Origin: Minisyncoccota bacterium
GTDB taxonomy: Bacteria > Patescibacteriota > Minisyncoccia > UBA6257 > 2-01-FULL-56-20
Direction of reading: 5' to 3'
NCBI GenBank assembly: GCA_035509435.1
Contig: DATJLR010000002.1
Location: 69,774-133,773, forward strand
DNA: 64,000 nucleotides
The position numbers and the translations under genes are program-made. The notes beneath the pieces are model-generated. The model was not told the origin of the DNA and made no database searches. It was given only the letters and a program-made list of their open reading frames with translations. Below are positions 43,629 through 59,913 of this stretch, in pieces (the first letter of the stretch is position 1; the number at the start of each line of letters is the position of its first letter).

Positions 43629-44054
43629 CTATTTATTGGCCCGGTGCTTTTCGCACTTACAGCCCTTGGGCTTGATGAACTTGTCGAAATATTCCTTGCC
43701 GTAGTCGTAGGTGAGCTCGGTTCCCGCCTTGATGCGTTTGCGGGAGAAGATGAATATCCTGTCGCCGGGACCGATCGCTTCGCAGTTCGGCCTGCACGAG
43801 TGGTTGATGTACCGCGCGCGGTTGGCGCGCACGTTCCCGTCGATCGTCTTGCGGGAGTTCACCTCAAAAAGATATCTGCCTTCGTCCTCGTCCGCCTCTT
43901 TGCTGCTCACCACGCGGCCGGTGTATTCGATGACGCAGACCCCTTTCGGGATATCCTCTTTGGTGAAGAGGCCTTTGCCGGTGAGCGAGCGGCGAACGGA
44001 AAGTTTGTAGCCCCGAGGGGTATATTTGGAGAGATGTTTTTTCATATGGCCCAA
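43629..44054 (-). CDS. SET-domain protein (putative lysine methyltransferase)
   Basis: RYINHSCRPNCE and GTELTYDYG, classic SET/post-SET motifs. 141 aa. Confidence 0.8.
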   Translation of the reverse strand: MGHMKKHLSKYTPRGYKLSVRRSLTGKGLFTKEDIPKGVCVIEYTGRVVSSKEADEDEGRYLFEVNSRKTIDGNVRANRARYINHSCRPNCEAIGPGDRIFIFSRKRIKAGTELTYDYGKEYFDKFIKPKGCKCEKHRANK

Positions 44055-44078
44055 AACCGCCTGATGTAGGGGTCTATT

Positions 44079-44756
44079 TTACCATATATACGGCACAAGC
44101 CGATAGCGGACCTTCTGCGTGTATTCGGCATACCCCGGAAGATCTTTCTTCAATATTTTTTCTTCGTCGATCATCCGCCACAGAAGGATGGGAAAGAAGG
44201 GGACGATGAGGGCTATCGTCCACCATGAACCGAGCGCGAGCGGGATGCCCACAAAGAGCCATAATGCTCCCGCATACATCGGATGCCGCACGTGCGCGTA
44301 CGGGCCGCTCGAGACCACCTTTTGGTCAGCCGCCACGGTGATGTTCGCCGCCGCGAAGCTGTTCACGCGGATGACCCAGAAGATAAAGAGGAAAGAAAGC
44401 ACGATGATGAGATTGCCGAGCACGCTGCCCCATGCGGGAACCGGCGAGAGGCCGTAGCGATGGTCAAGCACGGCGAGGACGATGAAGGCAAAGAACGAGA
44501 AGATGATGAGCGATATGATGATCTTCTGCGCCGCGCCCTCCTCTTTCCACGGTCCGGCGTTCATCCTGCGCTCAAGGAGCGGGCGATCATAGAGCAAGAG
44601 GTATATCGTGAAGGCGATCGTCGAGAGCGCAAAGACGGCGAGAAAAAGCCAGCCCTGCCAGTACTGCCACGTTCCCGCGCTCACGTATATGAGCGCCACG
44701 AAGAACGCCATCCCGAGCACGCTTTGCATGATCGCTTTCCCGATGAGGGACCTCAT
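44079..44756 (-). CDS. Isoprenylcysteine carboxyl methyltransferase (ICMT)/phospholipid methyltransferase family membrane protein
   Basis: Multi-TM, C-terminal VSSGPYAHVRHPMYAGALWLFVGIPL motif of the ICMT/PEMT family. 225 aa. Confidence 0.8.
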   Translation of the reverse strand: MRSLIGKAIMQSVLGMAFFVALIYVSAGTWQYWQGWLFLAVFALSTIAFTIYLLLYDRPLLERRMNAGPWKEEGAAQKIIISLIIFSFFAFIVLAVLDHRYGLSPVPAWGSVLGNLIIVLSFLFIFWVIRVNSFAAANITVAADQKVVSSGPYAHVRHPMYAGALWLFVGIPLALGSWWTIALIVPFFPILLWRMIDEEKILKKDLPGYAEYTQKVRYRLVPYIW

Positions 44757-45062
44757 ACTCTAACGATACACCTGCTGGCGGCAAGCACAACTTGCTGCTC
44801 CGCATGATACGCGCCGTAAGAACCCACACTTACAGCCATGTAATGCCACGTGAGCAGACCTCAACGCCCAGTGTTTAGGGCTTTCTAGCCCGTAAATGCC
44901 CCCGTGTGCGATCGTTCGCCGCGGGTGAGGGTTGAGGAGGCGGTAAGGGGCGGGAGACGTGGGACATTAGCACGTTTCATCGGGCATAATGTTTCACTCG
45001 CCAAAAAAGGAAAATAGCCCACTTTTACCCAAGCATTACCTAATTTTTTAGAGAAAATCAAA

Positions 45063-45677
45063 ATGCCAATCAGATTTACCATCCCTAATAATTTCGGTAA
45101 GACGCAGATGCCACGACGTTTCACTATGAGTTCCCAAGAATCCAAGGAAACCGTTGAGGGCAAAGAAGGTCTTAGCGTCGCCGAACTGAAAAAGGGCGGC
45201 GTGTTCCGGGGTCGGCGCGTGGAAGCGCAATACGGGTTTCGATATGGCGAGTTCGAGATGATACTCGTCCACGATCCGATCGAGCTCGATTGGTACTTGA
45301 AGATTACGAATCCGGGGCCAAGAAACCGGAATAACGCCATCACGATCGTCGAGACCTCTTGCCACTATGGAGGCGTCCGGGAGTGGTTCGTGTGCCCTCG
45401 TTGCGAGCGTCGCTGCGGCAACTTGTACAAAGATGAAGATGACTTCGCCTGCCGGCGCTGCATGGATTTCGGATACGCTTCGCAAAGGGTGAACTATCGG
45501 AGCTTTGAGCCGACCATTGTTCGCATGAAGAAATATGAAAAAGAGATCGAAAAGAAACCCATTTACCAATCTTACAAAGGGAAGCCAACAAAACGTGCCC
45601 TGCGCTACGACAAGCTCTTGGAGCGGTTAGGATCGTGGAGCGAAGCTTTTAACCAGCGGGAAGCGGAGGAGCTTTAA
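45063..45677 (+). CDS. Hypothetical protein with CxxC...CxxC zinc-ribbon
   Basis: CPRCERRCGNLYKDEDDFACRRCMD motif, 204 aa, AT-rich codon usage. The overlapping minus ORF 44885..45343 is less protein-like. Confidence 0.5.
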   Translation: MPIRFTIPNNFGKTQMPRRFTMSSQESKETVEGKEGLSVAELKKGGVFRGRRVEAQYGFRYGEFEMILVHDPIELDWYLKITNPGPRNRNNAITIVETSCHYGGVREWFVCPRCERRCGNLYKDEDDFACRRCMDFGYASQRVNYRSFEPTIVRMKKYEKEIEKKPIYQSYKGKPTKRALRYDKLLERLGSWSEAFNQREAEEL

Positions 45678-45768
45678 CTTCATACTTGGGGATACATCAC
45701 GCTTCCCTTGGTGCTGTTATTTTTGTAAAATTAAAGTATTAAAACGGTCTAGCGCTCGTTTAATTCAA

Positions 45769-46389
45769 ATGGTTCTTACTAACGATAAACTCATACGTGC
45801 GGCTCTACGAGCTAACTTGGAACGGGACCTGCAAAGATACCGGGCAAAGAGCGGCCATCCAGCGCAAATTTTTGAAGAACTTGGGGTAAGGCACGGCGTT
45901 TCAAGGATTGACCTTGCCGTGATCAACGGCGTGATGCACGGCTATGAGATAAAGAGTGACCTAGACACACTTCAAAGACTCCCGGATCAGGTAGATGCCT
46001 TTAGCTCCGTATTCGACAAGCTAACGCTCGTCGTCGGAAAAAAACATTTGTACGATGCGATAAACATCCTACCTGATTGGTGGGGGGTCTTGCTTGCAAA
46101 AGTTGATGACGATGGAACCTTGATTTTCCAATCTATCAGGAAGGCGAGTAAAAATTTTACGCAAGACCCCCATTCGATTGCGAAGCTTTTATGGAGGGAG
46201 GAGGCGTTACAAATTTTAGAGAATAAGAATAGAGCGAAAGGAGTTCGATCAAAAACACGCGACGTAATTTATGAGAGGTTGGCTGAGGTCATGCCGATCG
46301 GTGCACTGAAAGAGAGGGTGAGGGATGCACTATTGGTTTCTCGCGAAGGCTGGCGATCTGATCTACCACTAGCTTTAAGTGGTGATTAA
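45769..46389 (+). CDS. PD-(D/E)xK nuclease-fold protein (sce7726-family-like)
   Basis: RIDLAVING...GYEIKSD gives the D...ExK catalytic signature in the expected beta-strand context. ~206 aa, matching the uncharacterised sce7726-type proteins that pair with sce7725-type partners (family assignment from memory, unverified). Confidence 0.55.
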   Translation: MVLTNDKLIRAALRANLERDLQRYRAKSGHPAQIFEELGVRHGVSRIDLAVINGVMHGYEIKSDLDTLQRLPDQVDAFSSVFDKLTLVVGKKHLYDAINILPDWWGVLLAKVDDDGTLIFQSIRKASKNFTQDPHSIAKLLWREEALQILENKNRAKGVRSKTRDVIYERLAEVMPIGALKERVRDALLVSREGWRSDLPLALSGD

Positions 46390-47506
46390 TTTCCCAAGCA
46401 ATCCAATCTACTGCGCGGCCGGTACCTTTAAGTGAGGTATCTTTTATGTATCGGTGGAAATGCTTCGCCTTCTCAGCAATTTGTTTATCTCCCCAGCAGT
46501 GTTTTTCTCCGTAAAATAAATTTTTATCATCAATGATGTCTTCTACGAGTAGTTTCGCGTTTGCTAAATAATATTGGAACTCGGCTACTTTTCCCTTCAT
46601 AACCAGCCAATCTTTTTCGAGAGTGTATTTGATGCTTGTGGTTGAATTATAGTACTGAAGCGCTTCAACGAAAATGGGGTTTCGAATAGTGTAATCGGCG
46701 TAATTGGGCTTTCTAACGAGTTTTTGGGTTCGGACATGTTGAAACCAACCATGCCAATCCGCACGTGGTAAGAAGTTAGGTTTATCAAGCTCGCACTCGC
46801 CAACATCTTTTGGAAAAGCACCGCTTGCGAATATGAAGTTTTTCCAGCTACCTAAGTTTTTTATTTTTTGGCTGGCGGTCAAAAATTGTAAATACAGCCC
46901 GTCTTTTTCTTGGATTGCTTTGATATCGACCAATAAGTCGATCTCCTTTTCGGCTAAGTTAAATGCAGCCAAAAAGGCGCCGATTTTTTCATTTAGCTTT
47001 TCTGGATCGAGGAGGTCAGAGGATGCAATTCTCAGGCAAAGGCCCTCTTTGTATTTTCCATAAAGAGAACAAGCCGCTGCTTTTATGCTGTCATCATCGT
47101 TCAAATTCAAAACCGGGATCAACTTCGCCCCCAATCCCATAGCTGCTGGTACAATTGAATTTAATGCGTCTACTTTTAGCTGGGTAGTTAGCTCGCCCTC
47201 CATCAGTAATGTAAAGTCGACAAAGATAGGTCTAGAGCCCCACGCTTTAAATATCTCATTCGGGATTTCGTTTATGCGCTCTTCCTTAAATTTTTTCACC
47301 ACTTCCGCAAAGATTTCCTCTTGAGATTTTTTTACTTTCTTTTTCTCCCCGTTCTGGTGAACAATTTTGGAATTATTCACTGTCGGCATTACAAGCTCGA
47401 TCAGAGGCAGTAGAGCGTCTTTGGTTTTTTCATCCAAAGGCTCGAGCGCCCACTGTTCGGCCGGCTTCCACTTAAGTATTGGGGTGTACTGTTCTTTATT
47501 TAACAT
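46289..47506 (-). CDS. ~400-aa uncharacterised partner protein (sce7725-family-like)
   Basis: Long AT-rich ORF, convergent with and overlapping the nuclease-like gene by ~100 nt. Start placed at the internal ATG (MLNKEQYTPILKWKP...) 11 nt inside the upstream higA-immA gene. No catalytic motif recognised by eye. Confidence 0.5.
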   Translation of the reverse strand: MLNKEQYTPILKWKPAEQWALEPLDEKTKDALLPLIELVMPTVNNSKIVHQNGEKKKVKKSQEEIFAEVVKKFKEERINEIPNEIFKAWGSRPIFVDFTLLMEGELTTQLKVDALNSIVPAAMGLGAKLIPVLNLNDDDSIKAAACSLYGKYKEGLCLRIASSDLLDPEKLNEKIGAFLAAFNLAEKEIDLLVDIKAIQEKDGLYLQFLTASQKIKNLGSWKNFIFASGAFPKDVGECELDKPNFLPRADWHGWFQHVRTQKLVRKPNYADYTIRNPIFVEALQYYNSTTSIKYTLEKDWLVMKGKVAEFQYYLANAKLLVEDIIDDKNLFYGEKHCWGDKQIAEKAKHFHRYIKDTSLKGTGRAVDWIAWEINHHLKLVVDQIASLREKPIVHPSPSLSVHRSA

Positions 47507-48722
47507 GTTTTTTCTTTCCCGATTTCTCGTCGGGGAAAAGAACACGGACCTTTGTTTCGCCTACGATGCTGTTTAAATAAACCCATTTTCCGCTTTCATG
47601 TCTCATTTTCCCGGCGACAATAGCTACGTGAACGCCTAACTCTTTAGCCAGACTATTAGCTGCTATGGATGAGGGGACGAGCTTAGCAGCGCTTATTTCC
47701 CATTTATCGGAAGGTACCAAGGCTTCGCCTGCGAGCTTATCCGCTTCTCTTTCTTTTGTCCCGATATCCGATCCTTTTGGATCTTCAAGTTCGTCATAGA
47801 AGAAATCGATATCCTGATCATAATGCAAAGCCACGTGAGCCAACTCGTGCATTAGCGTAAACCAAAAATTATCTAGTCTATCGTATCTAAGAGTCAGTCC
47901 GATAATCGGATTTTTTTTATCCGCCATAATAGCCATCCCATCTAAAGATGTTTTGGAAAGATGAGGCACTATTACAAGAGTTATCCCGTGCTTTTTTAGA
48001 TAGTCTTTAGCGAGAATTGGTCCATTCTCTTGGATGCTTAATTTTGCTAGCGCCTGCATGAAATCGAGGTTAACCGTCCCGGGTTTATAGGGTGCGTGCG
48101 TGCTTTCTTCTTTTGCTTTTTTTAGAACGCGCGTAGCCCAAGCCGCTAACGCATGTTTATCCGTAAGAGGAGAAGAACGATAATTAGATTTCCGTAAGCC
48201 CATAATTTGCGCAGAAAACTTTGTTTGCGAAAAAAACTCTTTTAGTAAGTCCACCTTGTTCATTTTTTTGACTGATCCAGACCCAAAATAACCACGTTCT
48301 TCCATTTCGGCAATGAGGGCGTTGTTCCAGTTTTGATATTCTGAATTTTCATCTAGTGTCGGCTTTTGAATGAGGACTTTAGCTGGAATCCCAAGACCAA
48401 GCTCCAAAGCTCTAATCATTTCTATGCTAAGAGGTCTTTTCCCGGAGAGTATTTCTGAAACTCTACTAGGACTCCCAAGATACGGAATTAGGTCGGCAGG
48501 TTTTAGATCGGCCTGTTCCATTCTAAATTTAATTGCATCTATGGGACTAGGCAGCGCCGAAGGAAAATATCTTTTTTCATAATCCTCAATCAGCGTACTC
48601 AGCAGGGCGAGTTGCTCGCCTTCTGCTGAATCGGGGTTTGGATCATGGATCATAAGCGTCTCAAGTAATTTGAGCGCTTCTTGGTAATCTGATTCAGTTT
48701 TTATGACTTTGATTATGTTCAT
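47496..48722 (-). CDS. higA: HigA-like HTH (XRE) antitoxin fused to ImmA/IrrE-family metallopeptidase (HEXXH)
   Basis: N-terminus MNIIKVIKTESDYQEALKLLETLM...SRVSEILSGKRPLSIEMIRALELGLGIPAKVLI (HigA-type HTH). C-terminal LMHELAHVAL HEXXH zinc-peptidase motif (DUF955/ImmA). Confidence 0.75.
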   Translation of the reverse strand: MNIIKVIKTESDYQEALKLLETLMIHDPNPDSAEGEQLALLSTLIEDYEKRYFPSALPSPIDAIKFRMEQADLKPADLIPYLGSPSRVSEILSGKRPLSIEMIRALELGLGIPAKVLIQKPTLDENSEYQNWNNALIAEMEERGYFGSGSVKKMNKVDLLKEFFSQTKFSAQIMGLRKSNYRSSPLTDKHALAAWATRVLKKAKEESTHAPYKPGTVNLDFMQALAKLSIQENGPILAKDYLKKHGITLVIVPHLSKTSLDGMAIMADKKNPIIGLTLRYDRLDNFWFTLMHELAHVALHYDQDIDFFYDELEDPKGSDIGTKEREADKLAGEALVPSDKWEISAAKLVPSSIAANSLAKELGVHVAIVAGKMRHESGKWVYLNSIVGETKVRVLFPDEKSGKKKHVK

Positions 48723-48735
48723 GTTTTTAATTTCA

Positions 48736-49017
48736 CTAGGTCCAAGTATCGTATTCTTTGTGGGTCCCAATTTTTTTAACTAAGGCTATTTGATTTTTAT
48801 AGTTGATCTGAGCCAACAACCTGTACTTATTTCCACAAATATCGAACACGACCTGTTGATCCCCTAAGAGGCTGGCTTTTTGATACCTGCTCTTGAGAGC
48901 ATGGGGAGTGGCCCAGCCAGCATCCTCGACTTCCGCCTCCCATGCTTCAATCTGAGCTCTGGCATCTGGATAATTATCCTTGAAGTCGGAAAGTAGCTGT
49001 TTGCCTAGTAATTTCAT
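48736..49017 (-). CDS. higB: Type II toxin HigB (RelE/ParE fold)
   Basis: 93 aa; MKLLGKQLLSDFKDNYPDARAQIEAWEAEVEDAGWATPHALKSRYQKASLL...KIGTHKEYDTW, typical of HigB-family toxins encoded upstream of HigA. Confidence 0.75.
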   Translation of the reverse strand: MKLLGKQLLSDFKDNYPDARAQIEAWEAEVEDAGWATPHALKSRYQKASLLGDQQVVFDICGNKYRLLAQINYKNQIALVKKIGTHKEYDTWT

Positions 49018-49143
49018 ATCTTTTTGCCGGGGATTTAATCATTATTTGGGTTCCCATATTGGGAAGTATGGACGGGTTTATCCGGAATGTCAAGCTCCCC
49101 CCAGAGAGGGGGGGGGATGAGTAATTCGGTGCCGAATAGGCTT

Positions 49144-50625
49144 CTAATTTTGTGGTTCCAACTCTTGCTCTATCTCCTCAAACGATTCCACTGCGGCGCG
49201 GAGGTGCTCGAGAATTTCGGCTGCGATTACCTTCGGCTCAGGCAGGTTTTCCATGTCGGTCACGCTGTCATCTTTGAGCCAGAAGATGTCGAGGTTCACT
49301 TTATCGCGTGCAATGATCTCGCTGTACGCAAACCGCTTGAAACGCTCGGACTCCTTTCGCTTGTGTCGATTCTCCGGATTGTAGGCCGCAAGGAATTCGG
49401 CGAAGTCCTCGTCAGCGAGCTTGCGCTCTTTGAGCGTGAAGTGCTTGTTGGTACGCAAGTCGTAAATCCACACTTCCTTCGTCTGTGGGTCTTTGCTCGC
49501 TGGTTTGTTATCAAAGAAGATGACGTTTGCTTTGACGCCCTGCGCGTAGAAGATGCCGGTCGGCAGCCGCAGGATCGTGTGCAGGTCGGTCGTCTCCAAG
49601 AGCTTGCGACGAACTGTCTCACCGGCCCCGCCCTCAAAGAGCACGTTGTCCGGAACGACGACCGCCGCGCGGCCGTCAGCTTTCAGCATCGTGCGAATAT
49701 GCTGCACGAAGTTAAGCTGCTTGTTTGAGGTAGACGCCCAGAAATCCTGTCGGTTGTATGAAAGTGCCTCGCGTGATACCGCACCGCTTTCTTCAGCGGT
49801 TACGACGTAGCTCGACTGACGGCCGAAAGGAGGATTGGCGAGCACGTAATCGAAGCGCATGCCGCTGTCCGCGAGCAAACTATCATCGCGATGGATTGGC
49901 GGCGTATCGCCGGCATCGCCGATGCCGTGCAAAAAGAGATTCATGACGCAGACGCGCGCAGTCTCCGGCACAAGCTCCCAGCCGGTAAAAGTTTTCTTTT
50001 TCAAAAATGCCAGCTCATCGCGGCCAAGCTCATCGCCGTAGGTACGTAACAGATAATCCTGCGCCGAAAGGAAGAAGCCGCCTGTCCCGCAAGCAGGATC
50101 GGCAATCGTCTTCTTGGGCTGCGGCCGAAGTGCAGCAACCATGGCGCGGATGAGCGGACGCGGCGTGAAGTATTGTCCGGCTCCGCTTTTCGTATCCGAG
50201 GCAACGCGCTCGAGGAGCGATTCGTAAATCTCGCCTTTGACGTCCACGTTAAGGCCGACCCAGCTCGTTTCTTCGATCATATCGATAACGCGTTTGAGGA
50301 GGGCGGGCGTTTGAATTTTATTCTGCGCTCGAGCGAAGATCATGCCGAGCATGCCGGGCTTATTGCCGAGCGCCTCGAGAATCTCGATGTAGTGCGCTTC
50401 CAGTTCCGCACCCTTCTGCGCCACGAGCGTGGGCCACGCGTACTTCGCTGGGATGCCGAGATCGCGATTGTAAGGCGGTTTGGCATACTCATCAGCCATC
50501 TTGAGAAAAAGCAGGATCGTGAGCTGCTGGAGATAGTCGCCCGTCGAGACGCCGGCATCCAAAAGAACGTCGCATAAACTCCAGATACGGTTGCTGATAT
50601 TTGAAACTTGAGGTGAAGTGGCCAT
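49144..50625 (-). CDS. hsdM: Type I restriction-modification system methyltransferase subunit
   Basis: N6-adenine MTase motifs (DPACGTGGF motif I, VLANPPFG motif IV), HsdM N-terminal domain. 493 aa. Confidence 0.92.
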   Translation of the reverse strand: MATSPQVSNISNRIWSLCDVLLDAGVSTGDYLQQLTILLFLKMADEYAKPPYNRDLGIPAKYAWPTLVAQKGAELEAHYIEILEALGNKPGMLGMIFARAQNKIQTPALLKRVIDMIEETSWVGLNVDVKGEIYESLLERVASDTKSGAGQYFTPRPLIRAMVAALRPQPKKTIADPACGTGGFFLSAQDYLLRTYGDELGRDELAFLKKKTFTGWELVPETARVCVMNLFLHGIGDAGDTPPIHRDDSLLADSGMRFDYVLANPPFGRQSSYVVTAEESGAVSREALSYNRQDFWASTSNKQLNFVQHIRTMLKADGRAAVVVPDNVLFEGGAGETVRRKLLETTDLHTILRLPTGIFYAQGVKANVIFFDNKPASKDPQTKEVWIYDLRTNKHFTLKERKLADEDFAEFLAAYNPENRHKRKESERFKRFAYSEIIARDKVNLDIFWLKDDSVTDMENLPEPKVIAAEILEHLRAAVESFEEIEQELEPQN

Positions 50626-50629
50626 AGTT

Positions 50630-52078
50630 TTATTTTATCGCCGTCTTTGATCGACCGCGCGTCTTCGATATTACCTTCGTTCGCGGCGCTGCGTCGACAC
50701 GCTTGGCATTGATGCGTTCAAGCAATGCGGCCGCTGGCTCGTCGCTCGAATCCTGCGGTACAAGCTTGCCCGTGAACGCCTGCTGCAAAATGGACTGACG
50801 AAGATGCTCGGCACGTTGGAGATTGGCGGATAAAACCTGTTCGATCTCGTCGGCGACGCTCAGTCGACATTCAACTTCGGAAACGATACGCTTTTGCTCA
50901 GCGAGGGGTGGTAGCGGTACGGCAATACTCGCAACGATGCTCAAATTCAGATTGGGTTGTACTCCACCGCTCGAATGCCCTCTTACATCCTCATAATTTT
51001 TCCAGAAGAAAATCTTGAGATAATTCTTTACCTCTGAATCCATAACCTGCACTGCGGCAATCGCTTGATTTGTAGTAGCAGAGATCATTAATTCCGAGCA
51101 CTTACCGCGCGTTTTCCCTTCGCCATACATAGCAAGCAGCAAAGTACCTGCTGGATACAATGTCAGATTCGTTTCTTTCAATGCCTTTTCTGTCACGAAC
51201 TCCGATGCTTCTTTGACCTGTAAGTTATTAAGCGCCCCGCTTGTGATCCAAGCTATGTCTCCATTATGGTAATAAGACGAATCACCTCGATTTGGAGTTG
51301 CGCCGGTGCCTACAAGCGAAAGCTGTGCAACGCTCGCCCATGTCCATCCCTCCGGCAGTGCCGACAATCCGGTCGTGTCTGGCGATGCCGGTTCTTTGTA
51401 CTTACCGCGGCCGTTCCATTTTTCATGGCGCTCTTTGAGGATACGCGTGAGGAGCTCGGAGCCAGTTTCATAGCTGCGGCCTTCGGATCGAGCAACCTCG
51501 GCTTCCGTGGGTACGAGTTTGCCGGAGCATGCGGCGGCAAGAACGCTCGCACGATAACGCTTCAATTCCACCTGCGCTTCCTCAAGTTCCTTGATGCCAG
51601 AATCGAGCTCTGAAATAAATTCATCGACTTTAGTAACGATACGTTCCTGCTCCGCGAGGGGCGGCAGTGGAAATTCACGTTCCAGTGTTTTTGTTACAAC
51701 CACGAATGGCTGTGCTGCGCCGCTTCGTATCCAAAAATGCTCGTTGTTGAGGCGATACCAAAGGAAGCGGACGTTGATCGCGTGATCGCGAGGCCGTACC
51801 ACGTGTGTGTTTGCGATAGCAGACCATTTCCCAGATGCAAGAAAACACTTGCCGCACCGCGCTCCGACAGCAGATACAATCACGGCATCTCCTTCTTCTT
51901 CATATCCATCACGCCAAACATCCTGACCGGTTGCGCTGAATGCCGCAAATAATTTTTCGCCAGCATGGGACGAAAGACGTCCTTTGATAAGCTTTGAATT
52001 ACCGGAGTGGTGCTCCGTTACATCAGCGAGCGTAGCGGCAGCCCATCCTTGTGGAATTTTTTCTGTATTGTTGCTCAT
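50630..52078 (-). CDS. hsdS: Type I restriction-modification system specificity subunit
   Basis: 482 aa with two target-recognition domains separated by conserved coiled-coil spacers (LPPLAEQERIV... and LPPLAEQKRIVSEV...). Confidence 0.85.
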   Translation of the reverse strand: MSNNTEKIPQGWAAATLADVTEHHSGNSKLIKGRLSSHAGEKLFAAFSATGQDVWRDGYEEEGDAVIVSAVGARCGKCFLASGKWSAIANTHVVRPRDHAINVRFLWYRLNNEHFWIRSGAAQPFVVVTKTLEREFPLPPLAEQERIVTKVDEFISELDSGIKELEEAQVELKRYRASVLAAACSGKLVPTEAEVARSEGRSYETGSELLTRILKERHEKWNGRGKYKEPASPDTTGLSALPEGWTWASVAQLSLVGTGATPNRGDSSYYHNGDIAWITSGALNNLQVKEASEFVTEKALKETNLTLYPAGTLLLAMYGEGKTRGKCSELMISATTNQAIAAVQVMDSEVKNYLKIFFWKNYEDVRGHSSGGVQPNLNLSIVASIAVPLPPLAEQKRIVSEVECRLSVADEIEQVLSANLQRAEHLRQSILQQAFTGKLVPQDSSDEPAAALLERINAKRVDAAPRTKVISKTRGRSKTAIK

Positions 52079-54828
52079 ACGGTTGCGAGTTCGCGCTGTA
52101 GATCGGTGAGGATTTCTTCATAGCCCTCACCGAAGACCTCATAGACGCCGGCTAATCCACCATGCTGCACGAGCGGCGGCAGATCAAGGTCGTCCTTAGT
52201 GATTTCGAGCGACGTCGCGATGTGGTCTTTGATAAGCGTGAGCCAATCGATTTGGGCCGGTGTAAATGTCTTACCTTCCTTCTGCATTTTTGCCAACCAT
52301 CCAGCAAAGCGCTCCTCGACTTCCTCGCGGAACGGCGCAAGCGCCGACTGCGGTTCGATGGCGTGGCGTACTAAAGCGACGACATCGGGCAGGGTTTTTG
52401 CGGTGCCGGGCTTCACTTTCGGCCCCTCGATCATCCGGAATGCGTACCAAATTTCCTGCGGCGGTAACGCGGCGTCTTTGAGTTGCTCGGCCAATTCCTT
52501 CGCCATCGCATAGGTTATGTGGCGCTTGTTGTAGGGCTGACTGTAAAAAATCTGAAGCGCAACGACATCGTCACGGTGCTTCGCGATAAAGTCCTTGAAT
52601 TTCTGAACGGTCGCTTTGGCACGCTCAAGCGCCTGTGCGTCCGTGCCCGAGGAGAGCACGGAGTCCGGCGTTATCTTGTCGATAATTTGGTCATGTTCCT
52701 GCCGGACGGTCTCGATGAGATCGCGCAGCTTCGGATCGTCGAACGGCGCACACGCTTCAGTGACGAGCGCTTTCGCCGCCGCCGCTATCGCCGCTTCGTC
52801 CGGCTCTGGCGCACCGGTCGTCTGTTTGGCGCGATCCGCTTGGATGTCGAGATCGTAGGCATCAAGGAGCGCGCGGGCGAGATCGGCCGGACTCTTGCCG
52901 CCGGCAACTTTCGCGATGCGTTCCCGTTCCGCTGGTTCGAGCTCCCGATCCAAGCGAGCAAGACGGTTACCGAGCGACGTGAGCGTGTCCTCGTCGCGCA
53001 CGCCCAAGGCCGCCTGCATGAGGAGCGCCTTCATACTAACCGACGGTCGGCGTTCGAGGGGCCGCGATGCCTGCTTCGGCGATTCCGTGACGCCCACGGC
53101 ATCAACGATGACGAAGTGTGTCTTCGCGTGAGCCGCCGATGACACTTTCTTGAGATCATCTCCTGAGAGCACGCGCGTACCGCGACCCTTCATCTGCTCA
53201 AAGTAATTCTCGGAACGGACATCACGCATAAACAAAAGACATTCGAGCGGCTTCACGTCCGTGCCGGTCGCAACCATGTCGACGGTCACGGCTATTCTCG
53301 GATTGTAGTCATTGCGGAAATCGGAAAGCGTCTGCTCCGGATTCTCGGCGTTGTAGGTGATCTTGCGGCAGAACGCATTCCCTTCGGCGAATTCTTCGCG
53401 GATGATCGTGATAATGTCGTCGGCGTGGGAATCGGTCTTCGCGAAGACGAGCGTCTTCGGAACTTCGAATTCTTGTTTACCGTCTTTGTCCGTAAAGCGA
53501 TCAGGAAAGAGCGACGGCAGCACGCGTTTGAACTCGCGGATGACCGTGCGGATTTGATTCGGGTTCACGACGCTGCGGTCAAGCTCGCTTGAGGGGTAGA
53601 TGACATCCTCGTCAACCTGCTCCCAGCGCTTGCGGCGCGTAAGACGGCTGCGCTTGTCCACCCATTCACCGGCCTCGATCTGGCCGCCCTGTTCGCCGAC
53701 GGCCGTCTTGATGCGGTAGACGTCATAACCCACATTCACGCCGTCGACGACGGCCTCTTCGTGTGTGTACTCGGAGACGACATTCTGATTAAAAAATCCG
53801 TAGGTGCGAGCGTCGGGCGTGGCGGTCAGGCCGACCATGAACGCATCGAAGTAATCGAGTACCTGCTTCCAGACGTTGTAAATAGATCGGTGACATTCGT
53901 CGATGATAATGAGGTCGAAAAACTCCGGCGGATAGGTGGCGTTGTAGACCACGTCTCGCATTTGCTTGAGTGCAGCTTCGCCAACCGAATGCTCTTCGGC
54001 AGATTCATCAAGCTCCTCGCCGCGGAGGATCGAATACATGCGCTGGATGGTGCTCACGCACACCTGCGAACTCGGATCGATAGTGCCGGAGCGAAGCCGC
54101 TGCACGTTGTAGAGCTCCGTGAACTTGCGGCTGTCATCCTGCGGCGTGTAGGCCTGAAATTCCTGTTCCGCCTGCCTGCCGAGATTCCGTGTATCAACGA
54201 GAAAGAGTACGCGCTTGCCCTTGGCGAATTTCAGATAGCGATACACCGCCGTGATAGCGGTGTACGTCTTACCCGATCCGGTGGCCATCTGGACGAGAGC
54301 GCGAGGCCTTGCTTCTTTCAGCGACTTCTCGAGATTGTCTATGGCAACGATTTGGCATTGGCGCAGGCCTTTATGGTCGAGCGCCGGCAGATCAAGCAGC
54401 CGGGCGCGGAGCGTCTTCGCTTCGGCGTGCCATGCGGCAAGCGTTTCGGGCCGATGGAAATTAAAAATGTCCCGGGCCCGCGGCTTCGGATCGCGCATGT
54501 CGGTGAACCGCGTCTCCTCGCCGGTTGATTCGTAGACGAACGGAAGCGGCTCGTTGCCGACGCGCCACTTGATCTCGCTCACGGCATAACGCTCCGCCTG
54601 CGTCTCAACTTTCGAGAGCACGGTGCCTGCCGGTTTTGCTTCGACGACCCCAACATGCACACGGTCGACCATCAAGAGGTAATCAACCGGGCCGGTGTCA
54701 GTGGGATATTCGCGGACGGCGATACCTACGCCTGCTCCGGGGTTCATCTCCCGATAATCCTGAAGAATCCAACCCGCTGCGATCAGCTGTTTGTCTATGT
54801 TTTCACGTGCTCGTTGCTCGGGAGTCAT
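52075..54828 (-). CDS. hsdR: Type I restriction enzyme endonuclease/helicase subunit
   Basis: 917 aa; N-terminal PD-(D/E)xK region, SF2 helicase motifs (MATGSGKT Walker A, DECH box IIIDECHRS, motif VI), C-terminal HsdR domain. Overlaps the hsdS start (ATGA). Confidence 0.92.
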   Translation of the reverse strand: MTPEQRARENIDKQLIAAGWILQDYREMNPGAGVGIAVREYPTDTGPVDYLLMVDRVHVGVVEAKPAGTVLSKVETQAERYAVSEIKWRVGNEPLPFVYESTGEETRFTDMRDPKPRARDIFNFHRPETLAAWHAEAKTLRARLLDLPALDHKGLRQCQIVAIDNLEKSLKEARPRALVQMATGSGKTYTAITAVYRYLKFAKGKRVLFLVDTRNLGRQAEQEFQAYTPQDDSRKFTELYNVQRLRSGTIDPSSQVCVSTIQRMYSILRGEELDESAEEHSVGEAALKQMRDVVYNATYPPEFFDLIIIDECHRSIYNVWKQVLDYFDAFMVGLTATPDARTYGFFNQNVVSEYTHEEAVVDGVNVGYDVYRIKTAVGEQGGQIEAGEWVDKRSRLTRRKRWEQVDEDVIYPSSELDRSVVNPNQIRTVIREFKRVLPSLFPDRFTDKDGKQEFEVPKTLVFAKTDSHADDIITIIREEFAEGNAFCRKITYNAENPEQTLSDFRNDYNPRIAVTVDMVATGTDVKPLECLLFMRDVRSENYFEQMKGRGTRVLSGDDLKKVSSAAHAKTHFVIVDAVGVTESPKQASRPLERRPSVSMKALLMQAALGVRDEDTLTSLGNRLARLDRELEPAERERIAKVAGGKSPADLARALLDAYDLDIQADRAKQTTGAPEPDEAAIAAAAKALVTEACAPFDDPKLRDLIETVRQEHDQIIDKITPDSVLSSGTDAQALERAKATVQKFKDFIAKHRDDVVALQIFYSQPYNKRHITYAMAKELAEQLKDAALPPQEIWYAFRMIEGPKVKPGTAKTLPDVVALVRHAIEPQSALAPFREEVEERFAGWLAKMQKEGKTFTPAQIDWLTLIKDHIATSLEITKDDLDLPPLVQHGGLAGVYEVFGEGYEEILTDLQRELATV

Positions 54829-54973
54829 TACCCCTGATGATAGCGGAAAATCAAGGATTTGTTAATGATTTTTTAATCTTTTATTTACCTTAATTTTAAG
54901 GTATCAACTCGTAAGAATTGGACTAAGAATGGTCGTGGTCCAAAGACCCGCAAAAAGTGAGGCAGATAAAGAC

Positions 54974-55000
54974 GAAACCGAGGTTTTCACCTCGGTTCGT
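54974..55000 (-). terminator. Hairpin terminator downstream of the tRNA (minus strand)
   Basis: AACCGAGG-ttttcac-CCTCGGTT stem-loop immediately 3' of the tRNA acceptor end, followed on the minus strand by a T-rich tract. Confidence 0.55.
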
Positions 55001-55009
55001 CCAGCTTTG

Positions 55010-55291
55010 CTCCGCGACCAGGACTCGAACCTGGAACCATCGCCTTACACGTTTCCTAATGTTTCCAAAAGGCGTGGACTATATCATTGCCGTGGTCCGC
55101 CGCGCGAGGCGGGGACGGTAGGCATCTCGGTATCTAGTCTCTACGGTGCCCCTCCTTGCGGAGGGTTCCCACGGTGTTCGCATGCCCTTGCGGGGTTAGC
55201 CTTCACCGTTATCCCAAGATTGTTCATCGTGCCGTTTCCGACACAAGCTGCCTTCTGACAGGGCGCCGCTCTACCATTGAGCTATCGCGGA
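55010..55291 (-). tRNA. tRNA gene interrupted in the anticodon loop by a group I intron (anticodon probably GUU/Asn, alternatively UGU/Thr)
   Basis: Minus-strand reading: 5' half TCCGCGA-TA-GCTC-AATGGTA-GAGC-G-GCGCC-CUGU..., 3' half ...UAA-GGCGA-UGGUU-CCAGG-UUCGAGU-CCUGG-UCGCGGA-G. The 7-bp acceptor stem is perfectly complementary and D and T arms are canonical. CCA is not encoded. The ~210-nt insert carries group I R- and S-like elements. Confidence 0.85.
55048..55259 (-). ncRNA. Group I self-splicing intron within the tRNA anticodon loop (~210 nt, no ORF)
   Basis: Minus-strand sequence contains GTAGAGACTAGA (R/P7-like) and ATGATATAGTCC (S-like) conserved elements. Intron begins after an exonic U, ends with G, and a 4-bp P1 (exon CUGU / intron GCAG) is possible. 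Exact boundaries are ±2 nt. Confidence 0.7.
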
Positions 55292-55341
55292 ATATGAAGA
55301 ACTCGAATACTATTCTAACAGATAGCGGGGGATTTTCAACC

Positions 55342-56004
55342 TCAGCCCGCGCTCGGCGGCGGCTGTACCGTCAAGCTGCCGTCCGGATTCTGGTCCACCT
55401 CGAAGAGGATATTTGCGGTGCCGCCGGTCGTGAGGATGATCGGGAACGTGCCGGGGTCGGGAAGCGTGAAGACGACCGGCTGGGCCGCGTACGTTTCGCC
55501 TTGCGTGCCGTTGCAGGTGCCCGAATCGGGGAAGGTGAACTGCTGGGTGACGGGCGGCGCAAGGTCGCCGTTCTCGTCGGCGATCAGGCGCATGGTGAGC
55601 GGCACGCATTCGGAGGCGGCGCCCATCTGTACCTGGACATCCACCGTGAGTTGCGCTCCGGAGATCTGCGCGCCGGTGACGGCAAGCGCTTCGTTGCCTT
55701 GTGTCCAGGTGATCGCCGCGGCGCCGACGGACGTCGACCCCGGTGTTGATGACGGCGTGCTTGTCGCCCCGGCGGGGGATGACGACGCAAGCGAGAGTGT
55801 TGATGATGCGAACGCGGTGGAGCTTGCGGTAGAGGTCGGCTCCGCGGCGATCGGCGTGCTCGTGCTGAATATCCCGCCGTCGCTCGACATGGAGTCCACC
55901 ACGTAAGTGCCGCCGCCGCTATAGAAAACGACGTAGAACGTGATCGCGACCATCACCACCGCGACGATGGACAACGTGATAAGGATATTCCTCAATGTCA
56001 TCAT
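55342..56004 (-). CDS. Membrane-anchored Ser/Thr-rich hypothetical protein
   Basis: N-terminal TM anchor MMTLRNILITLSIVAVVMVAITFYVVF, S/T/A-rich linker, ~90-aa C-terminal domain with two Cys. Confidence 0.45.
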   Translation of the reverse strand: MMTLRNILITLSIVAVVMVAITFYVVFYSGGGTYVVDSMSSDGGIFSTSTPIAAEPTSTASSTAFASSTLSLASSSPAGATSTPSSTPGSTSVGAAAITWTQGNEALAVTGAQISGAQLTVDVQVQMGAASECVPLTMRLIADENGDLAPPVTQQFTFPDSGTCNGTQGETYAAQPVVFTLPDPGTFPIILTTGGTANILFEVDQNPDGSLTVQPPPSAG

Positions 56005-56077: not shown

Positions 56078-57073
56078 TTATTCCGGCTTTTTCTTTTCCG
56101 TCGCGTGGCTGTCCACTTCGTACGACGTGTTCTGCGCCTCAAAGAAATTGACGAGCTCAAGGACGTCGGTGGCGCCGCTCATCCATTTGGCGGGATTCTT
56201 CGCGCCGTAGTGCGCGCCGATGCCGAGCTCTTCCAGGCGCCGGTCGGCGACGTACTGCACGTACTGGTTCACGTAGTCGGCATTCAGCCCGAGGATGCCG
56301 CGGGGGAAAAGGTCCTTGTTATACGCGACCTCCAGATCCACGCCGTCCACGACGATCTGCTTGATCTCCTCGGCAAATTCCTTCGTCAGCAGTTCCGCGT
56401 TCTCCTCTAAAATGTTCTGGATGAGGTTCATGCCGAATTTGAGGTGGAGCGATTCGTCGCGGAGCACCCAGTTGATCATGGAACCGAAGTTGCGGAGCTG
56501 GTTGCGCTGGCGGAACGAGAGCACCACCATGAAGCCGCTGTAGAACCAGATGCCCTCCATCACGATGTTCGTCGCGACGAGATTGCGGATAAAGTCCATC
56601 TTGCCCTCCGGCGTCTCGACGTCCAACGTGTCTTCCGTCATGCGCTTCATGTACTTGTTGATGTAATCCTCCTTGGCCTTCATGGACGGCGTGTCGAGGT
56701 GGAGATTGAAGACGTTCGACCGGTCGAGCGGGAACGTTTCCAGGACATATTCAAAGGACACGCAGTGGTTCGCTTCTTCCCACATCTGCTTCGCGAGATA
56801 GAGGTGGCATTCCGGCGACTTCAGATATGGATAGATGCCGAGCGCGATGGAGCGGTTGACGATGAGCTCGCCCGGATTGAAGAACGCCATCAGGAACTTC
56901 ACCGCGTGGCGCTCGTCGTCCGTCATCTTCTCCCAGTCGTAGAGGTCTTCCTTGAGCGCGATCTCGTGCGGGAACCACGTGTTGCGCACCGCCTGCTGAT
57001 AGAGGTCATATGCCCACTGGTACTTGATGGGGTGGAGGTTCATGTCCTCCGGGGACGCTTTGCCGATCAACAT
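56078..57073 (-). CDS. nrdB: Ribonucleotide reductase class Ia beta subunit
   Basis: Ferritin-like di-iron ligands (EExH motifs: MWEEANHCVSFEY, IVMEGIWFYSGF), C-terminal NrdA-binding tail. 331 aa. Confidence 0.92.
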   Translation of the reverse strand: MLIGKASPEDMNLHPIKYQWAYDLYQQAVRNTWFPHEIALKEDLYDWEKMTDDERHAVKFLMAFFNPGELIVNRSIALGIYPYLKSPECHLYLAKQMWEEANHCVSFEYVLETFPLDRSNVFNLHLDTPSMKAKEDYINKYMKRMTEDTLDVETPEGKMDFIRNLVATNIVMEGIWFYSGFMVVLSFRQRNQLRNFGSMINWVLRDESLHLKFGMNLIQNILEENAELLTKEFAEEIKQIVVDGVDLEVAYNKDLFPRGILGLNADYVNQYVQYVADRRLEELGIGAHYGAKNPAKWMSGATDVLELVNFFEAQNTSYEVDSHATEKKKPE

Positions 57074-57183
57074 GGTTTTAGTTGATTTATGTTATCTTAA
57101 AACTTTTTTTTAAACAAGCGATGGGACTCTGGGGGTTTGAGCGAGTGGCAGTTCCGACTGTGGAGCGAAAACCCCCGGAGCCC

Positions 57184-59913
57184 TTACTGACAGCTGTCGC
57201 AGAGGAACTGTTCCTGCGGATCGCTCGGGGGCATGATGCGCGGCGCGTTTGAGGCGACGGCGGATGCGGGAGCAGGCCGTTCGGCTTGTGTTTGTGGTTT
57301 TGGCTGGGCTTGTATGAGCGGTTGCTGCGGCGCAGGTTTTGCTTCGGCGAAGGGCCGGGCCGGAGCCTTGGCGAGCGTCGCCTCGATAGGTGCCGCCGCA
57401 CTCGCCTCTGCCGTGGTAGCCACGACTGGGCCGCCGATGAACGACGCTACGGTTTCCGCGACGGCGAACGGCTTTGTGGCGGGCTGCGCCGCTGTCGCTT
57501 GGCCTGTTTCTGCTGCAGGCGCACTGGCCGCTGCCTGCATCACCGCGGCGAACCCGCGCTTGCCCATCTGCTCCGCCTTGTTGACATGGACCGTTGACTG
57601 CTCCGCCGTGTGGCGCGGCTTCATGTGGAGGTAGTAGGTGGACTTTAATCCTTTCTTCCACGCGGTCGCGTAGATGTCCATCATGTCGCCGATGTCGCGC
57701 GTCTCAAGATACATGTTGCGCGAGAGCGACTGGTCCATCCACTTTTGCGCCCGCGCCGCGACCTCGATGAACGCGTACGGCGACGTGCTGAACGATGTCT
57801 TGTAGATCTCGCGGATGTGCGCGGGGATCTCATCAATGTTCGCGATGTCGCCCTGCTCGGCGATGATGCGTTCTTTCATCTTTTCCCACAGGCTCATGTT
57901 CTTGAGGTCGTTCACCAGGTTATGGTTGATGTCGAGATACTTTCCGGAGATCTTGTTGCGCGAGAAGACCTGCGCGAAACGGGGATCGATGCCGGGCGTC
58001 GTGCCGGCGACGAGCCCGATGTTCGCGTTCGGCGCGGTGGCCATGAGCGTCGCGTTGCGCATTCCTTTTTTCACCTTTTCGCGGAGCGCGTCCCAGTTCA
58101 ATCCGCGGTAATGCTTTTCCTTGTTGACGGTGAGCTCCGTGCCGCGGCCCTCTTCGAGCGTCGCGAGCGTGTCCATCGGCACCATGCCCTTGGACCAGCC
58201 CGAGCCATTGAAGTTCTTGTAGGCTCCGCGCTCGGCGGCGAGGTTCGCGCTCTCATCGATCGCGACGTAGCTCACGAACTCGAAGATCTTGTCGGCGAAG
58301 TTCCACGCGTGTTCGCTCTCATATGAAAGGCCGATCTGTTCGAGCATGTCGGAGAGTCCCATCACGCCGAGCCCGATCGCGCGGTTCTCCTGGTCGGAGC
58401 GCGTCGCCTCGGGAACCGGGAGCACATTGATGTCTATGAGGTTATCGAGCTGATGGACGGCAAAGCGCACGCTCTCCTCGAGGTTTTCCCAATCGATGGC
58501 CTTGTTGTGGACGTGGGTGGCGAGATTGAGCGATGCAAGGTTGCAGACCGCGATGTTGTCCTTGTCCTGCGGGAGGCAGATCTCCGTGCAGAGATTCGAC
58601 ATGTGGATCGTGCCGGTGTTGTTGTTGAGGGCCCGAAGGTTGGTGGAATCCTTCCAGGTAAGCCACGGGTGGCCGGTGGATTGGAGGGACGAGAGCATTT
58701 GGCGGTACTGTTCCTCTGCGGGCACCTTCTTGAACACCCGCAGCTCGCCTTTTTCGGCCATTTCTATGTATTCCGCGTAGCGCTTGCTGAATTCTTTGCC
58801 GTAAAGCTCCACGAGGTCGGGCGTCTCCTTCGGGTCGAACATGTACCACAATTCATGGTTCTCTACGCGGCGCATGAACTCGTCCGAGATCCATGCTGCG
58901 GTGTCCGCGGTGCGCATGCGGAGGTAGTCATCGCCCGCGTTGTGTTTCCAGTCCAGATATTCCGGGAAGTCGATGTGCCAGTTCTCCATGTAGAAGCAGA
59001 GCGCCCCTTTTTTCTTTCCGCCGCGCTGGATCGCGCGGATGGAGGTGTCGACGATCTTCGCGAACGGCGTCGGCCCCGACGACGGGGTGTTGTTGGAAGA
59101 GAGCGGCGAGCCGGTCGCGCGCAGCTTCGTCACCGAGAGCCCGAGGCCGCCCGTCGCTTTGGAGATCCGGATGACGTCCGCGACGGTCTTTGCGATGTGC
59201 TCGATGTCGTCTTCCATCTGGATGAGAAAGCAGTTGGAGAGCGAGGGGCGGGTGGTGCCGGCGCCGACGTTCGTGGAACCGCCCGCGATGTAGTTCATCT
59301 GCGACATCTTCTTGTAGAAACGCTTTGCCCAGAGCGTCGGATCTTTTTCATTGAACGAAAGTCCCATCGCGACGCGCATGAAGAAATATTGCGGCGTCTC
59401 CGCGGGCTCGTTCTCTTTGTCTTTGATGGAATAGCGATGGAGCATCGTGTCGAGGCCGCTGTAGACGAAGAGTTCGTCGCGCGAGATGTCGAGCGCGTTC
59501 GCCAATTCCTTGAGGTCGAACTTTTCCACCATGCGCGGATCGAGCAATTTATCGTCGACACCCTTTTTTATCCATGCCGAGAACCCGTCGCGATGCTTCT
59601 TGCGGAGAATTTCCGGATTGTCCTCGTAATCGCCGACCACTTTGCGGTAGATCGTCTTCAAAAGGAGGCGGACGGCCACTTTATCGTACTCGATATCCTC
59701 TTTGATGTTCTGTACGGCGGCATTGATCGTCGCCTGGTCCATCTCTTCGGTGGTGATGCCGTCATAGAGGGTGAGCCGCGTCTCGGTGGCGATCTGCGTG
59801 ACCATGCTGATGGGGTCCTGCAGGCCCGCGCACGCACGCTCGATGGAGCGGTTGATCTTATCCGCGTTGAATGGCTCCCTGGTTCCGTCTCTTTTTGTGA
59901 TCGTAAGCTCCAT
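57184..59913 (-). CDS. nrdA: Ribonucleotide reductase class Ia alpha subunit with extended low-complexity C-terminal linker
   Basis: N-terminal ATP cone (MELTITKRDGTREPFNADKINRSIERA), catalytic core (NLCTEI..., PNANI), C-terminal CDSCQ redox pair preceded by a ~120-aa Ala/Pro-rich linker. 909 aa. Confidence 0.95.
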   Translation of the reverse strand: MELTITKRDGTREPFNADKINRSIERACAGLQDPISMVTQIATETRLTLYDGITTEEMDQATINAAVQNIKEDIEYDKVAVRLLLKTIYRKVVGDYEDNPEILRKKHRDGFSAWIKKGVDDKLLDPRMVEKFDLKELANALDISRDELFVYSGLDTMLHRYSIKDKENEPAETPQYFFMRVAMGLSFNEKDPTLWAKRFYKKMSQMNYIAGGSTNVGAGTTRPSLSNCFLIQMEDDIEHIAKTVADVIRISKATGGLGLSVTKLRATGSPLSSNNTPSSGPTPFAKIVDTSIRAIQRGGKKKGALCFYMENWHIDFPEYLDWKHNAGDDYLRMRTADTAAWISDEFMRRVENHELWYMFDPKETPDLVELYGKEFSKRYAEYIEMAEKGELRVFKKVPAEEQYRQMLSSLQSTGHPWLTWKDSTNLRALNNNTGTIHMSNLCTEICLPQDKDNIAVCNLASLNLATHVHNKAIDWENLEESVRFAVHQLDNLIDINVLPVPEATRSDQENRAIGLGVMGLSDMLEQIGLSYESEHAWNFADKIFEFVSYVAIDESANLAAERGAYKNFNGSGWSKGMVPMDTLATLEEGRGTELTVNKEKHYRGLNWDALREKVKKGMRNATLMATAPNANIGLVAGTTPGIDPRFAQVFSRNKISGKYLDINHNLVNDLKNMSLWEKMKERIIAEQGDIANIDEIPAHIREIYKTSFSTSPYAFIEVAARAQKWMDQSLSRNMYLETRDIGDMMDIYATAWKKGLKSTYYLHMKPRHTAEQSTVHVNKAEQMGKRGFAAVMQAAASAPAAETGQATAAQPATKPFAVAETVASFIGGPVVATTAEASAAAPIEATLAKAPARPFAEAKPAPQQPLIQAQPKPQTQAERPAPASAVASNAPRIMPPSDPQEQFLCDSCQ

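Follow-up and report, generated by a model that had tools for sequence, protein, structure and literature searches.

A tRNA-Asn(GUU) gene of a Minisyncoccota bacterium, very probably split after U35 by a compact Azoarcus-like group I intron

What interrupts a bacterial transfer RNA (tRNA) gene in the middle of its anticodon loop, and which amino acid does the rejoined tRNA carry? These questions are raised by a locus in a 64,000-nucleotide stretch of DNA from a Minisyncoccota bacterium (assembly GCA_035509435.1, contig DATJLR010000002.1, positions 69,774 to 133,773), which was analysed as a whole and is called the window in the following. On the minus strand of the window, a tRNA gene at 55291..55010 is divided by an insert of 210 nucleotides (nt) at 55257..55048, and rejoining of the two exons yields a canonical 72-nt tRNA. 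An initial annotation had described the insert as a group I intron of about 210 nt in the anticodon loop and had pointed out that the anticodon, GUU or UGU, hinges on the exact splice junction. Both statements hold: the paired regions P1 to P9, their covariation, the match to a model of related introns and about a hundred homologues identify the insert as a group I intron, and of the two possible junctions, the evidence settles on the one that gives the anticodon GUU (Asn) with splicing between U35 and U36. We are thus highly confident that the locus is a tRNA-Asn(GUU) gene, which is split between U35 and U36 by a compact, Azoarcus-like (IC3-type) group I ribozyme that lacks an open reading frame (ORF).

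Both tRNA halves can be recognised on the minus strand, with the perfect acceptor stem and canonical D and T arms that had been noted initially; all coordinates given below are window positions in the direction of that strand, unless stated otherwise. The 5' exon (55291..55258; UCCGCGAUAGCUCAAUGGUAGAGCGGCGCCCUGU, i.e. UCCGCGA...CCCUGU) comprises the 5' strand of the acceptor stem (UCCGCGA), the D arm, the 5' strand of the anticodon stem and the loop nucleotides C32, U33, G34 and U35, and it is identical letter for letter in two related loci, L084 and L108. It is followed by the insert, which runs from CAGAAGGCAG to GAAACGUG and whose 3' end reads GGAAACGUG. The 3' exon (55047..55010; UAAGGCGAUGGUUCCAGGUUCGAGUCCUGGUCGCGGAG) begins with UAAGGCGA, ends with UCGCGGA-G and contributes U36, A37 and A38, the 3' strand of the anticodon stem, a 5-nt variable loop, the T arm and the 3' strand of the acceptor stem. 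The discriminator base G73 at 55010 is followed by GCA, so that the CCA end, by direct reading of the sequence, is not encoded by the gene. Over the whole 64 kilobases (kb), ARAGORN reports zero tRNAs in its default mode, and with its intron option it makes a single call, c[55009,55291], with an intron of 210 nt and the type Thr(tgt) i(33,210); further tRNA genes were not found by ARAGORN in the window. If the sequence is spliced in silico between positions 35 and 36, which gives GCGCCCUGUUAAGGCGA as the predicted sequence across the ligated exon junction, ARAGORN returns tRNA-Asn(gtt), with 73 bases by its own count and a canonical cloverleaf that consists of a perfect acceptor stem of 7 base pairs (bp), a D stem of 4 bp, a T stem of 5 bp closed by the loop UUCGAGU, and the 5-nt variable loop.

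Relatives of the insert were collected with the pattern GTAGAGACTANATA-N(25-55)-GATATAGTCC using one genome per species, which gave at least 120 loci, nearly all of them in metagenome-assembled genomes (MAGs) of Patescibacteria, the candidate phyla radiation (CPR). Among the matches listed, 97 sit within a split tRNA gene as judged by ARAGORN. A covariance model (R1) was built from 18 members of this family, which included neither the window nor the three sequences closest to it in the alignment (L084, L108 and L090). R1 matches the window at 55261..55045 with 165.6 bits and an E-value of about 2e-54 over model positions 1-213 of 213; this is its only match in the 64 kb, and the score falls within the range of full-length family members, which is about 142-205 bits. 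The fold itself was assessed on an alignment of the window and 21 short homologues (A1), which was produced with MAFFT and left unfitted, whereas the helices P1 to P9 were drawn from the window sequence, guided by the alignment of Williams (bioRxiv 2020, 10.1101/2020.01.27.920355). All helices could be drawn, a check that the initial annotation had advised, and for their 59 pairs, 89.5% of the pair cells across the 22 sequences are standard pairs; shifting the 3' partners by 1-3 columns lowers this share to 35-42%. Compensatory changes on both sides occur in 36 of the 59 pairs and affect P2, P3, P4, P5, P6a, P8 and P9; the covariation score is 0.449 versus about 0.11, and none of 500 shuffles reaches the observed values. 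In addition, RNAfold recovers P1, P2, P3, P4, P5, P5a, P6, P6a and P8 from the window sequence by itself (-80.1 kcal/mol, z = -2.69); its minimum free energy (MFE) fold lacks P9 and also P7, a pseudoknot that cannot be drawn by this kind of fold.

The search against Rfam, which the initial annotation had proposed as a check and whose failure it had named as a refutation, gave a divided answer. At gathering thresholds, nothing in the whole window matched, but a sensitive scan of 900 nt produced an end-to-end local alignment with Intron_gpI (RF00028) at 19.1 bits and an E-value of 0.025, far below the gathering score of 50. In our view, the low score points to a weakness of the Rfam model and not of the feature, since the family model scores high and the 12 Rfam seeds are all non-bacterial. 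The absence of bacterial sequences among these 12 seeds was described by Williams, who applied cut-offs of 18-20 bits instead.

The first base of the intron is C(+1) at 55257 and its last the omega G at 55048; string position p, as used for numbered pairs, corresponds to window coordinate 55262 - p. P1 (55261..55257 with 55252..55248) is formed by C32-U35 and the first intron base C+1, which pair with GGCAG across an AGAA loop. Within this helix, U35 (55258) faces the G at 55251, and their U.G wobble identifies the 5' splice site; this pair is U.G in 21 of the 22 homologues, U33 forms a U-A pair in 21 of 22, and the +1 pair covaries (CG in 7, GC in 7 and AU in 6 sequences). The adjacent P2 hairpin (55246..55227) has 8 bp, all of which are compensated in the family, carries a GAAA tetraloop (L2) and is present in the MFE fold. 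P3 is a 7-bp helix of AUCUUGG (55220..55214) and CCGAGAU (55130..55124), with compensatory changes in 5 of 7 pairs and 91.6% of cells paired. Between its strands lies the P4-P5-P5a-P6-P6a domain (55209..55145), likewise recovered in the MFE fold, in which the P4 pair 53-91 switches between AU and UA and the P5 pair 62-82 between GC and CG, and whose P6 comprises only 2 bp plus P6a. The P5 internal loop GCUAA...AUGC resembles a tetraloop receptor and, by analogy with the Azoarcus intron, may act as one.

The R-like and S-like core elements mentioned in the initial annotation are found at 55144..55133 and 55087..55076, respectively. The R element GTAGAGACTAGA, equal to GUAGAGACUAGA, spans J6/7, the 5' strand of P7 (G, a bulged A and GACU) and the start of J7/3, is invariant in all 22 homologues and pairs with AGUCC at 55080..55076, so that P7 is composed of G(A)GACU (55141..55136) and AGUCC. 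The S element ATGATATAGTCC, equal to AUGAUAUAGUCC, consists of J8/7 and this 3' strand of P7 and holds the guanosine-binding helix; its segment GAUAUAGUCC is invariant in the 22 homologues and agrees with the Rfam consensus GAUAUAGUC. The P8/P8a hairpin (55123..55089) contains a base pair that is AU in 12, GC in 7, CG in 2 and UA in 1 of the sequences, as well as an internal loop, CCUACC...CACGG. In some homologues, e.g. L048, the canonical 11-nt receptor CCUAAG...UAUGG stands in place of this loop, and the internal loop of the window could be a tetraloop receptor, too. The P9 hairpin (55072..55055) has 7 positions, 6 of which are compensated across the family, and a GAAA tetraloop (L9), and the omega G at 55048 (G214) is invariant in 22 of 22 homologues. 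An intron ORF or homing endonuclease was not found in the 210 nt, in agreement with the initial annotation; on the plus strand, ORFs at 54929-55258 and 55156-55749 overlap the gene, but neither has a Pfam match, and both were treated as spurious.

Could such an intron be a non-splicing remnant in a decayed tRNA pseudogene, with tRNA-Asn supplied by another gene? Mismatches in three helices weigh against an intact, functional gene. The top of the anticodon stem shows a G27.A43 mismatch, the only blemish of the cloverleaf in ARAGORN's fold of the spliced sequence; P5 has a G.G where the relatives show G.U; and P9 contains two adjacent U.U mismatches (55069-55068 with 55059-55058). Other points bear on the reading as a split tRNA-Asn(GUU) gene in general: the curated Rfam model stays far under its gathering score, as described above, and P6 and P7 are invariant in the family, so that covariation neither supports nor contradicts them. 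No convincing P10 pairing was identified, the Azoarcus intron served as the only model for the proposed contacts between tetraloops and receptors, and splicing in the cell as well as its chemistry are inferred from the established group I mechanism. A decayed gene would also fit with the lack of an endonuclease ORF, and 64 kb are too short to show whether this is the sole tRNA-Asn gene of the genome. Nevertheless, decay is improbable in our view. Every invariant core position of the family is intact in the window according to the alignment A1, the score obtained with R1 is one that is usual for the family, and the U.U/U.U pattern of P9 recurs identically in 7 of the 22 sequences and may represent a conserved non-canonical motif rather than damage. 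Furthermore, L084 and L108 have the same exons as the window, whereas their introns differ from it through changes that are compensated; the gene is accompanied by a promoter-like site and a terminator-like hairpin, and there is no second tRNA gene in the 64 kb.

The identity of the tRNA-Asn gene depends on where the intron ends are placed. The intron starts at ...CUGU/C and ends at ...GUG/UAA (the slash marking the splice sites), and owing to the repeated letters two junctions each provide a U at position -1 and an omega G, both of which letters had been noted initially. A cut after CUGU and before UAA splits the loop between 35 and 36 and yields Asn(GUU), and a cut after CU and before UGUAA splits it between 33 and 34 and yields Thr(UGU). 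The latter junction (CU/GU...ACG/UGUAA) is the one called by ARAGORN with its intron option, and it also agrees with the label of the closest seed in the Williams alignment, Pgr210.Thr.2Ug, whose intron ends two bases before that of the window and whose P1, formed by cuguc and GGCAG, has its wobble at the second U. The global pairwise identities to the Williams seeds, which range from 0.59 to 0.73 and hardly discriminate, were used only to find this nearest seed; Pgr210.Thr.2Ug is probably an Asn.4Ug intron that was read at the alternative junction.

The Asn reading is favoured on four grounds that are independent of each other: the U.G wobble at U35, the invariant omega G, the Asn-type tRNA body and the position of sister introns after CUGU. 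If the intron began after U33, the splice site would lie at a Watson-Crick U-A pair of P1 instead of at the wobble, which is found at U35 in 21 of the 22 homologues. The Thr junction would need G212 as its omega G, but L065 and L087 have an A there, and the intron of L057 ends with ...ACG/UAA; in these three loci only the Asn junction retains an omega G. Among the matches listed, the window and all 44 split genes have a body of the type UCC...GGA-G (U1-A72 and G73). In contrast, the 45 uninterrupted tRNA-Thr genes of the same genomes, 13 of which have the anticodon UGU, start with GC and are of the G1-C72 type (42 GCC, one GCT, one GCA and one AGC that was called one base early), and the 3' ends that were inspected (13 UGU and 8 GGU genes) all read ...GC-U (U73). 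The single uninterrupted tRNA-Asn among the related loci starts with UCU and ends with ...AGA-G. G73 and the anticodon are identity elements for asparaginyl-tRNA synthetase. Moreover, introns of this family also follow U35 in Asp, Tyr and His tRNAs. The wobble position, the conserved omega G and the type of tRNA body led us to reject junctions that would give Thr(UGU) or Thr(GGU), and a tRNA-Thr(UGU) gene with an intron between 33 and 34 is very unlikely.

A chance match or an insertion other than an intron, such as a mobile-element fragment between two tRNA-like halves, would account for the failure of Rfam to report anything at gathering threshold, but it is effectively refuted by the independent family model with its E-value of 2e-54, by the roughly one hundred homologues that other genomes carry at comparable sites and by the strong compensatory covariation of the group I fold.

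For a tRNA-Asn(GUU) gene split in this way, the following course of splicing is proposed. In the precursor, the loop nucleotides C32-U35 and the first intron base would pair with the internal guide GGCAG to form P1, thereby placing U35 in the U.G wobble, and the anticodon stem would stay intact with P1 stacked on it, which would hold both exons together. The core, consisting of P3-P8 and P4-P6, would fold, probably braced by the L2 and L9 GAAA tetraloops through clamps L2-P8 and L9-P5. A free guanosine held in P7 would attack the bond after U35; the omega G at 55048 would subsequently take the guanosine site, and the 3'-OH of U35 would attack the bond after the omega G, so that U35 would be ligated to U36 and the 210-nt intron released. 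The exons would probably be aligned by the anticodon stem, as in other tRNA introns. Processing of the 5' end by RNase P and addition of CCA would complete the tRNA, the latter step being required because the gene encodes GCA after G73.

Introns of this kind are already known. Williams reports 5292 tRNA genes split by group I introns, extending the known types from 4 to 21, and the seed alignment includes Asn.4Ug, Tyr.4Ug, Asp.4Ug and Thr.2Ug. The split tRNA-Asn of the window is an instance of the described and widespread class Asn.4Ug, with which it shares the insertion after CUGU, the first four nucleotides of the loop, as well as the U at -1 and the omega G. The core strings GGGAUAACGGUGAA, ACACCGUGGGAAC, CCGUAGAGACUAGAUACC and GAUAUAGUCCA of the window are also found in the seeds Pgr210.Thr.2Ug and Mba143.Tyr.4Ug, whereas the seed Pam37, labelled Asn.4Ug, has a larger intron, in which P2 is followed by a second hairpin and P7 by an additional one, both of which are absent from the window intron. 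A well-known counterpart in layout is the intron of the Azoarcus sp. BH72 pre-tRNA-Ile(CAU) (IC3; Aol6.Ile2.5Ug), which has the same P1-P9 arrangement without peripheral extensions and a GUAGAGACUAGA segment identical to that of the window. It is of about the same size (~205 nt versus 210 nt) and, like the window intron, has GAAA loops on P2 and P9 and receptor-like loops in P5 and P8, whose roles in Azoarcus are known from crystal structures. The two introns differ in their hosts and insertion sites (tRNA-Ile2 after position 36 in Azoarcus, tRNA-Asn after position 35 in the window), in J7/3 (GAC versus GAUA) and in the J8/7-P7 segment (GGCAUAGUCC versus GAUAUAGUCC). Furthermore, the Azoarcus intron self-splices by experiment, whereas the window intron is known from its sequence alone. 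The tRNA-Leu(UAA) intron of cyanobacteria and plastids (Leu.3Ug) is a self-splicing intron that is also IC3-type, lies in the anticodon loop and has a U.G wobble in a P1 built from the loop, but it is inserted between 34 and 35 of a type II tRNA and occurs in cyanobacteria, plastids and some proteobacteria, not in CPR. A preprint by Nakagawa et al. from 2025 reportedly deals, according to its title, with tRNA group I introns of Patescibacteria and a novel insertion site, possibly but not necessarily the one of the window.

The initial annotation had called group I introns that sit in tRNA genes of bacteria rare outside cyanobacteria, a few proteobacteria and CPR lineages, which is a fair description; the closest relatives of the window belong to CPR, where such introns are common. 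Detection of CPR tRNAs with group I introns has been described as difficult (Lui et al. 2021, PMC8172020), and the window matches this description, as default ARAGORN returned zero tRNAs. For annotation, the locus is of value as an example of a gene that is missed in the default mode and mistyped as Thr instead of Asn when introns are searched for. In small CPR genomes, whose tRNAs are probably single-copy, such errors can produce a false 'missing tRNA-Asn' along with a spurious extra tRNA-Thr. The locus also adds a well-supported example to a large natural set of compact Azoarcus-like ribozymes of ~200 nt, which could be used for comparative and structural work; existing knowledge of group I introns and tRNA biology is not changed by it.

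Among the first 120 related genomes (one per species), almost all of which are Patescibacteria, at least 44 share a split tRNA-Asn, and the insertion CUGU/...G/UAA is found in the window and in all 44 Asn loci. Among the matches listed, sister introns follow C32-U33-G34-U35 in Asn, Asp(GUC), Tyr(GUA) and His(GUG) tRNAs. The repeat at the junction misleads ARAGORN, which gives the type Thr(UGU) to 34 of the 44 Asn genes and the type Ser(UGA) to several Tyr genes; the 'Ser(tga)' calls are misread Tyr genes. The four tRNAs with GUN anticodons constitute the queuosine family, and it is about equally likely to be right or wrong, in our estimation, that a single intron lineage has spread over all four of them and that annotation pipelines mislabel its Asn hosts as Thr(UGU) and its Tyr hosts as Ser(UGA). 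The window intron would then be an ORF-less member of this lineage, and for these isotypes, CPR tRNA inventories and the Thr.2Ug class of the Williams catalogue may be wrong. Such a spread could have been possible through the shared loop C32-U33-G34-U35, which is recognised by the guide GCAG, and may have been helped by a small HNH-like endonuclease in the P1 loop of some copies. Introns of 509-549 nt occur in 13 of the 44 Asn loci (L017, L030, L033, L034, L043, L057, L068, L080, L102, L107, L111, L115 and L116), 11 of which contain an ORF of ~100-115 amino acids (aa) in the P1 loop with CxxC...HH...CANCHRE or CSNCHRE motifs. In L057, a sense ORF of 105 aa occupies this position, and L043 has no ORF that passes the filter. 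Pfam searches with two of the P1-loop ORFs gave a weak HNH match for L017 (19.4 bits, E-value 1.2e-3) and none for L107. To judge from its motifs, the P1-loop ORF probably encodes a small homing endonuclease, which the window intron does not have.

Other observations concern the related loci. Within a few kb, 10 of the first 100 (L002, L006, L007, L021, L031, L041, L042, L049, L053 and L089) contain a second, more divergent group I match to R1 (24-65 bits); on this basis, CPR genomes often hold several intron-split genes close together, and the window has only one. Two loci found with the pattern, L028 and L118 from Bdellovibrio-like MAGs, are of the Leu type. Six loci (L008, L043, L065, L070, L090 and L050) are labelled Gammaproteobacteria, Ignavibacteriota or Bacteroidetes despite their CPR-type introns; these labels may be binning or naming errors, and L090 is syntenic with the window.

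The tRNA-Asn(GUU) gene of the window appears to be a unit of its own, since it is preceded by a promoter-like site and followed by a terminator-like hairpin. The former (55339..55312) consists of TTGAAA, a 16-nt spacer and TG-TAGAAT, lies ~20 nt upstream of tRNA position 1 and was found in a consensus scan with 10 of 12 matches plus the extended -10 TG; this agreement with the consensus suggests that the TTGAAA...TAGAAT site may function as a promoter. The hairpin (54998..54975), identified by a terminator scan, has a 10-bp stem, begins 12 nt past the tRNA and is followed by a U-rich tail. The gene would thus apparently form a single transcription unit. Weak Rfam matches to BSnc120, plastid D5, c-di-GMP-I-GGC and others are at chance level and are explained by this hairpin and P6a, those to BSnc120 and plastid D5 being spurious hits on the hairpin.

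The tRNA with its intron is 88.6% identical to that of the Ca. Paceibacteria MAG L084 (among the matches listed), and the flanks are syntenic with the Minisyncoccia MAG L108, to which three segments covering ~3 kb are 69-73% identical in nucleotides; synteny of the flanks is weaker with L018 and L090. The window has a guanine-plus-cytosine (GC) content of about 58%, and with these similarities its host is most likely a high-GC member of Paceibacteria/Minisyncoccia within the Patescibacteria (CPR). Downstream of the gene lies a type I restriction-modification system. Directly past the 3' end of the tRNA (44000-54830) come HsdR (52075-54828) and HsdS (50630-52078) and then a stretch low in GC (0.43-0.48 at 46-50 kb). 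This arrangement suggests that the restriction-modification genes and the stretch might be an island integrated at the tRNA 3' end, but the idea is unsupported, since the terminal 22 nt of the tRNA are not repeated elsewhere in the window (with up to 3 mismatches). Upstream, adjoining the tRNA promoter-like site, is a conserved ORF of 220 aa (55342-56004, minus strand), which has no Pfam match and occurs at the same position in L108, L018 and L090. It is followed by NrdB and NrdA, a class I ribonucleotide reductase (56078-59913, minus strand), which lie between two blocks that are adjacent in L108, L018 and L090 and look like an insertion in the window genome or a loss in these three relatives.

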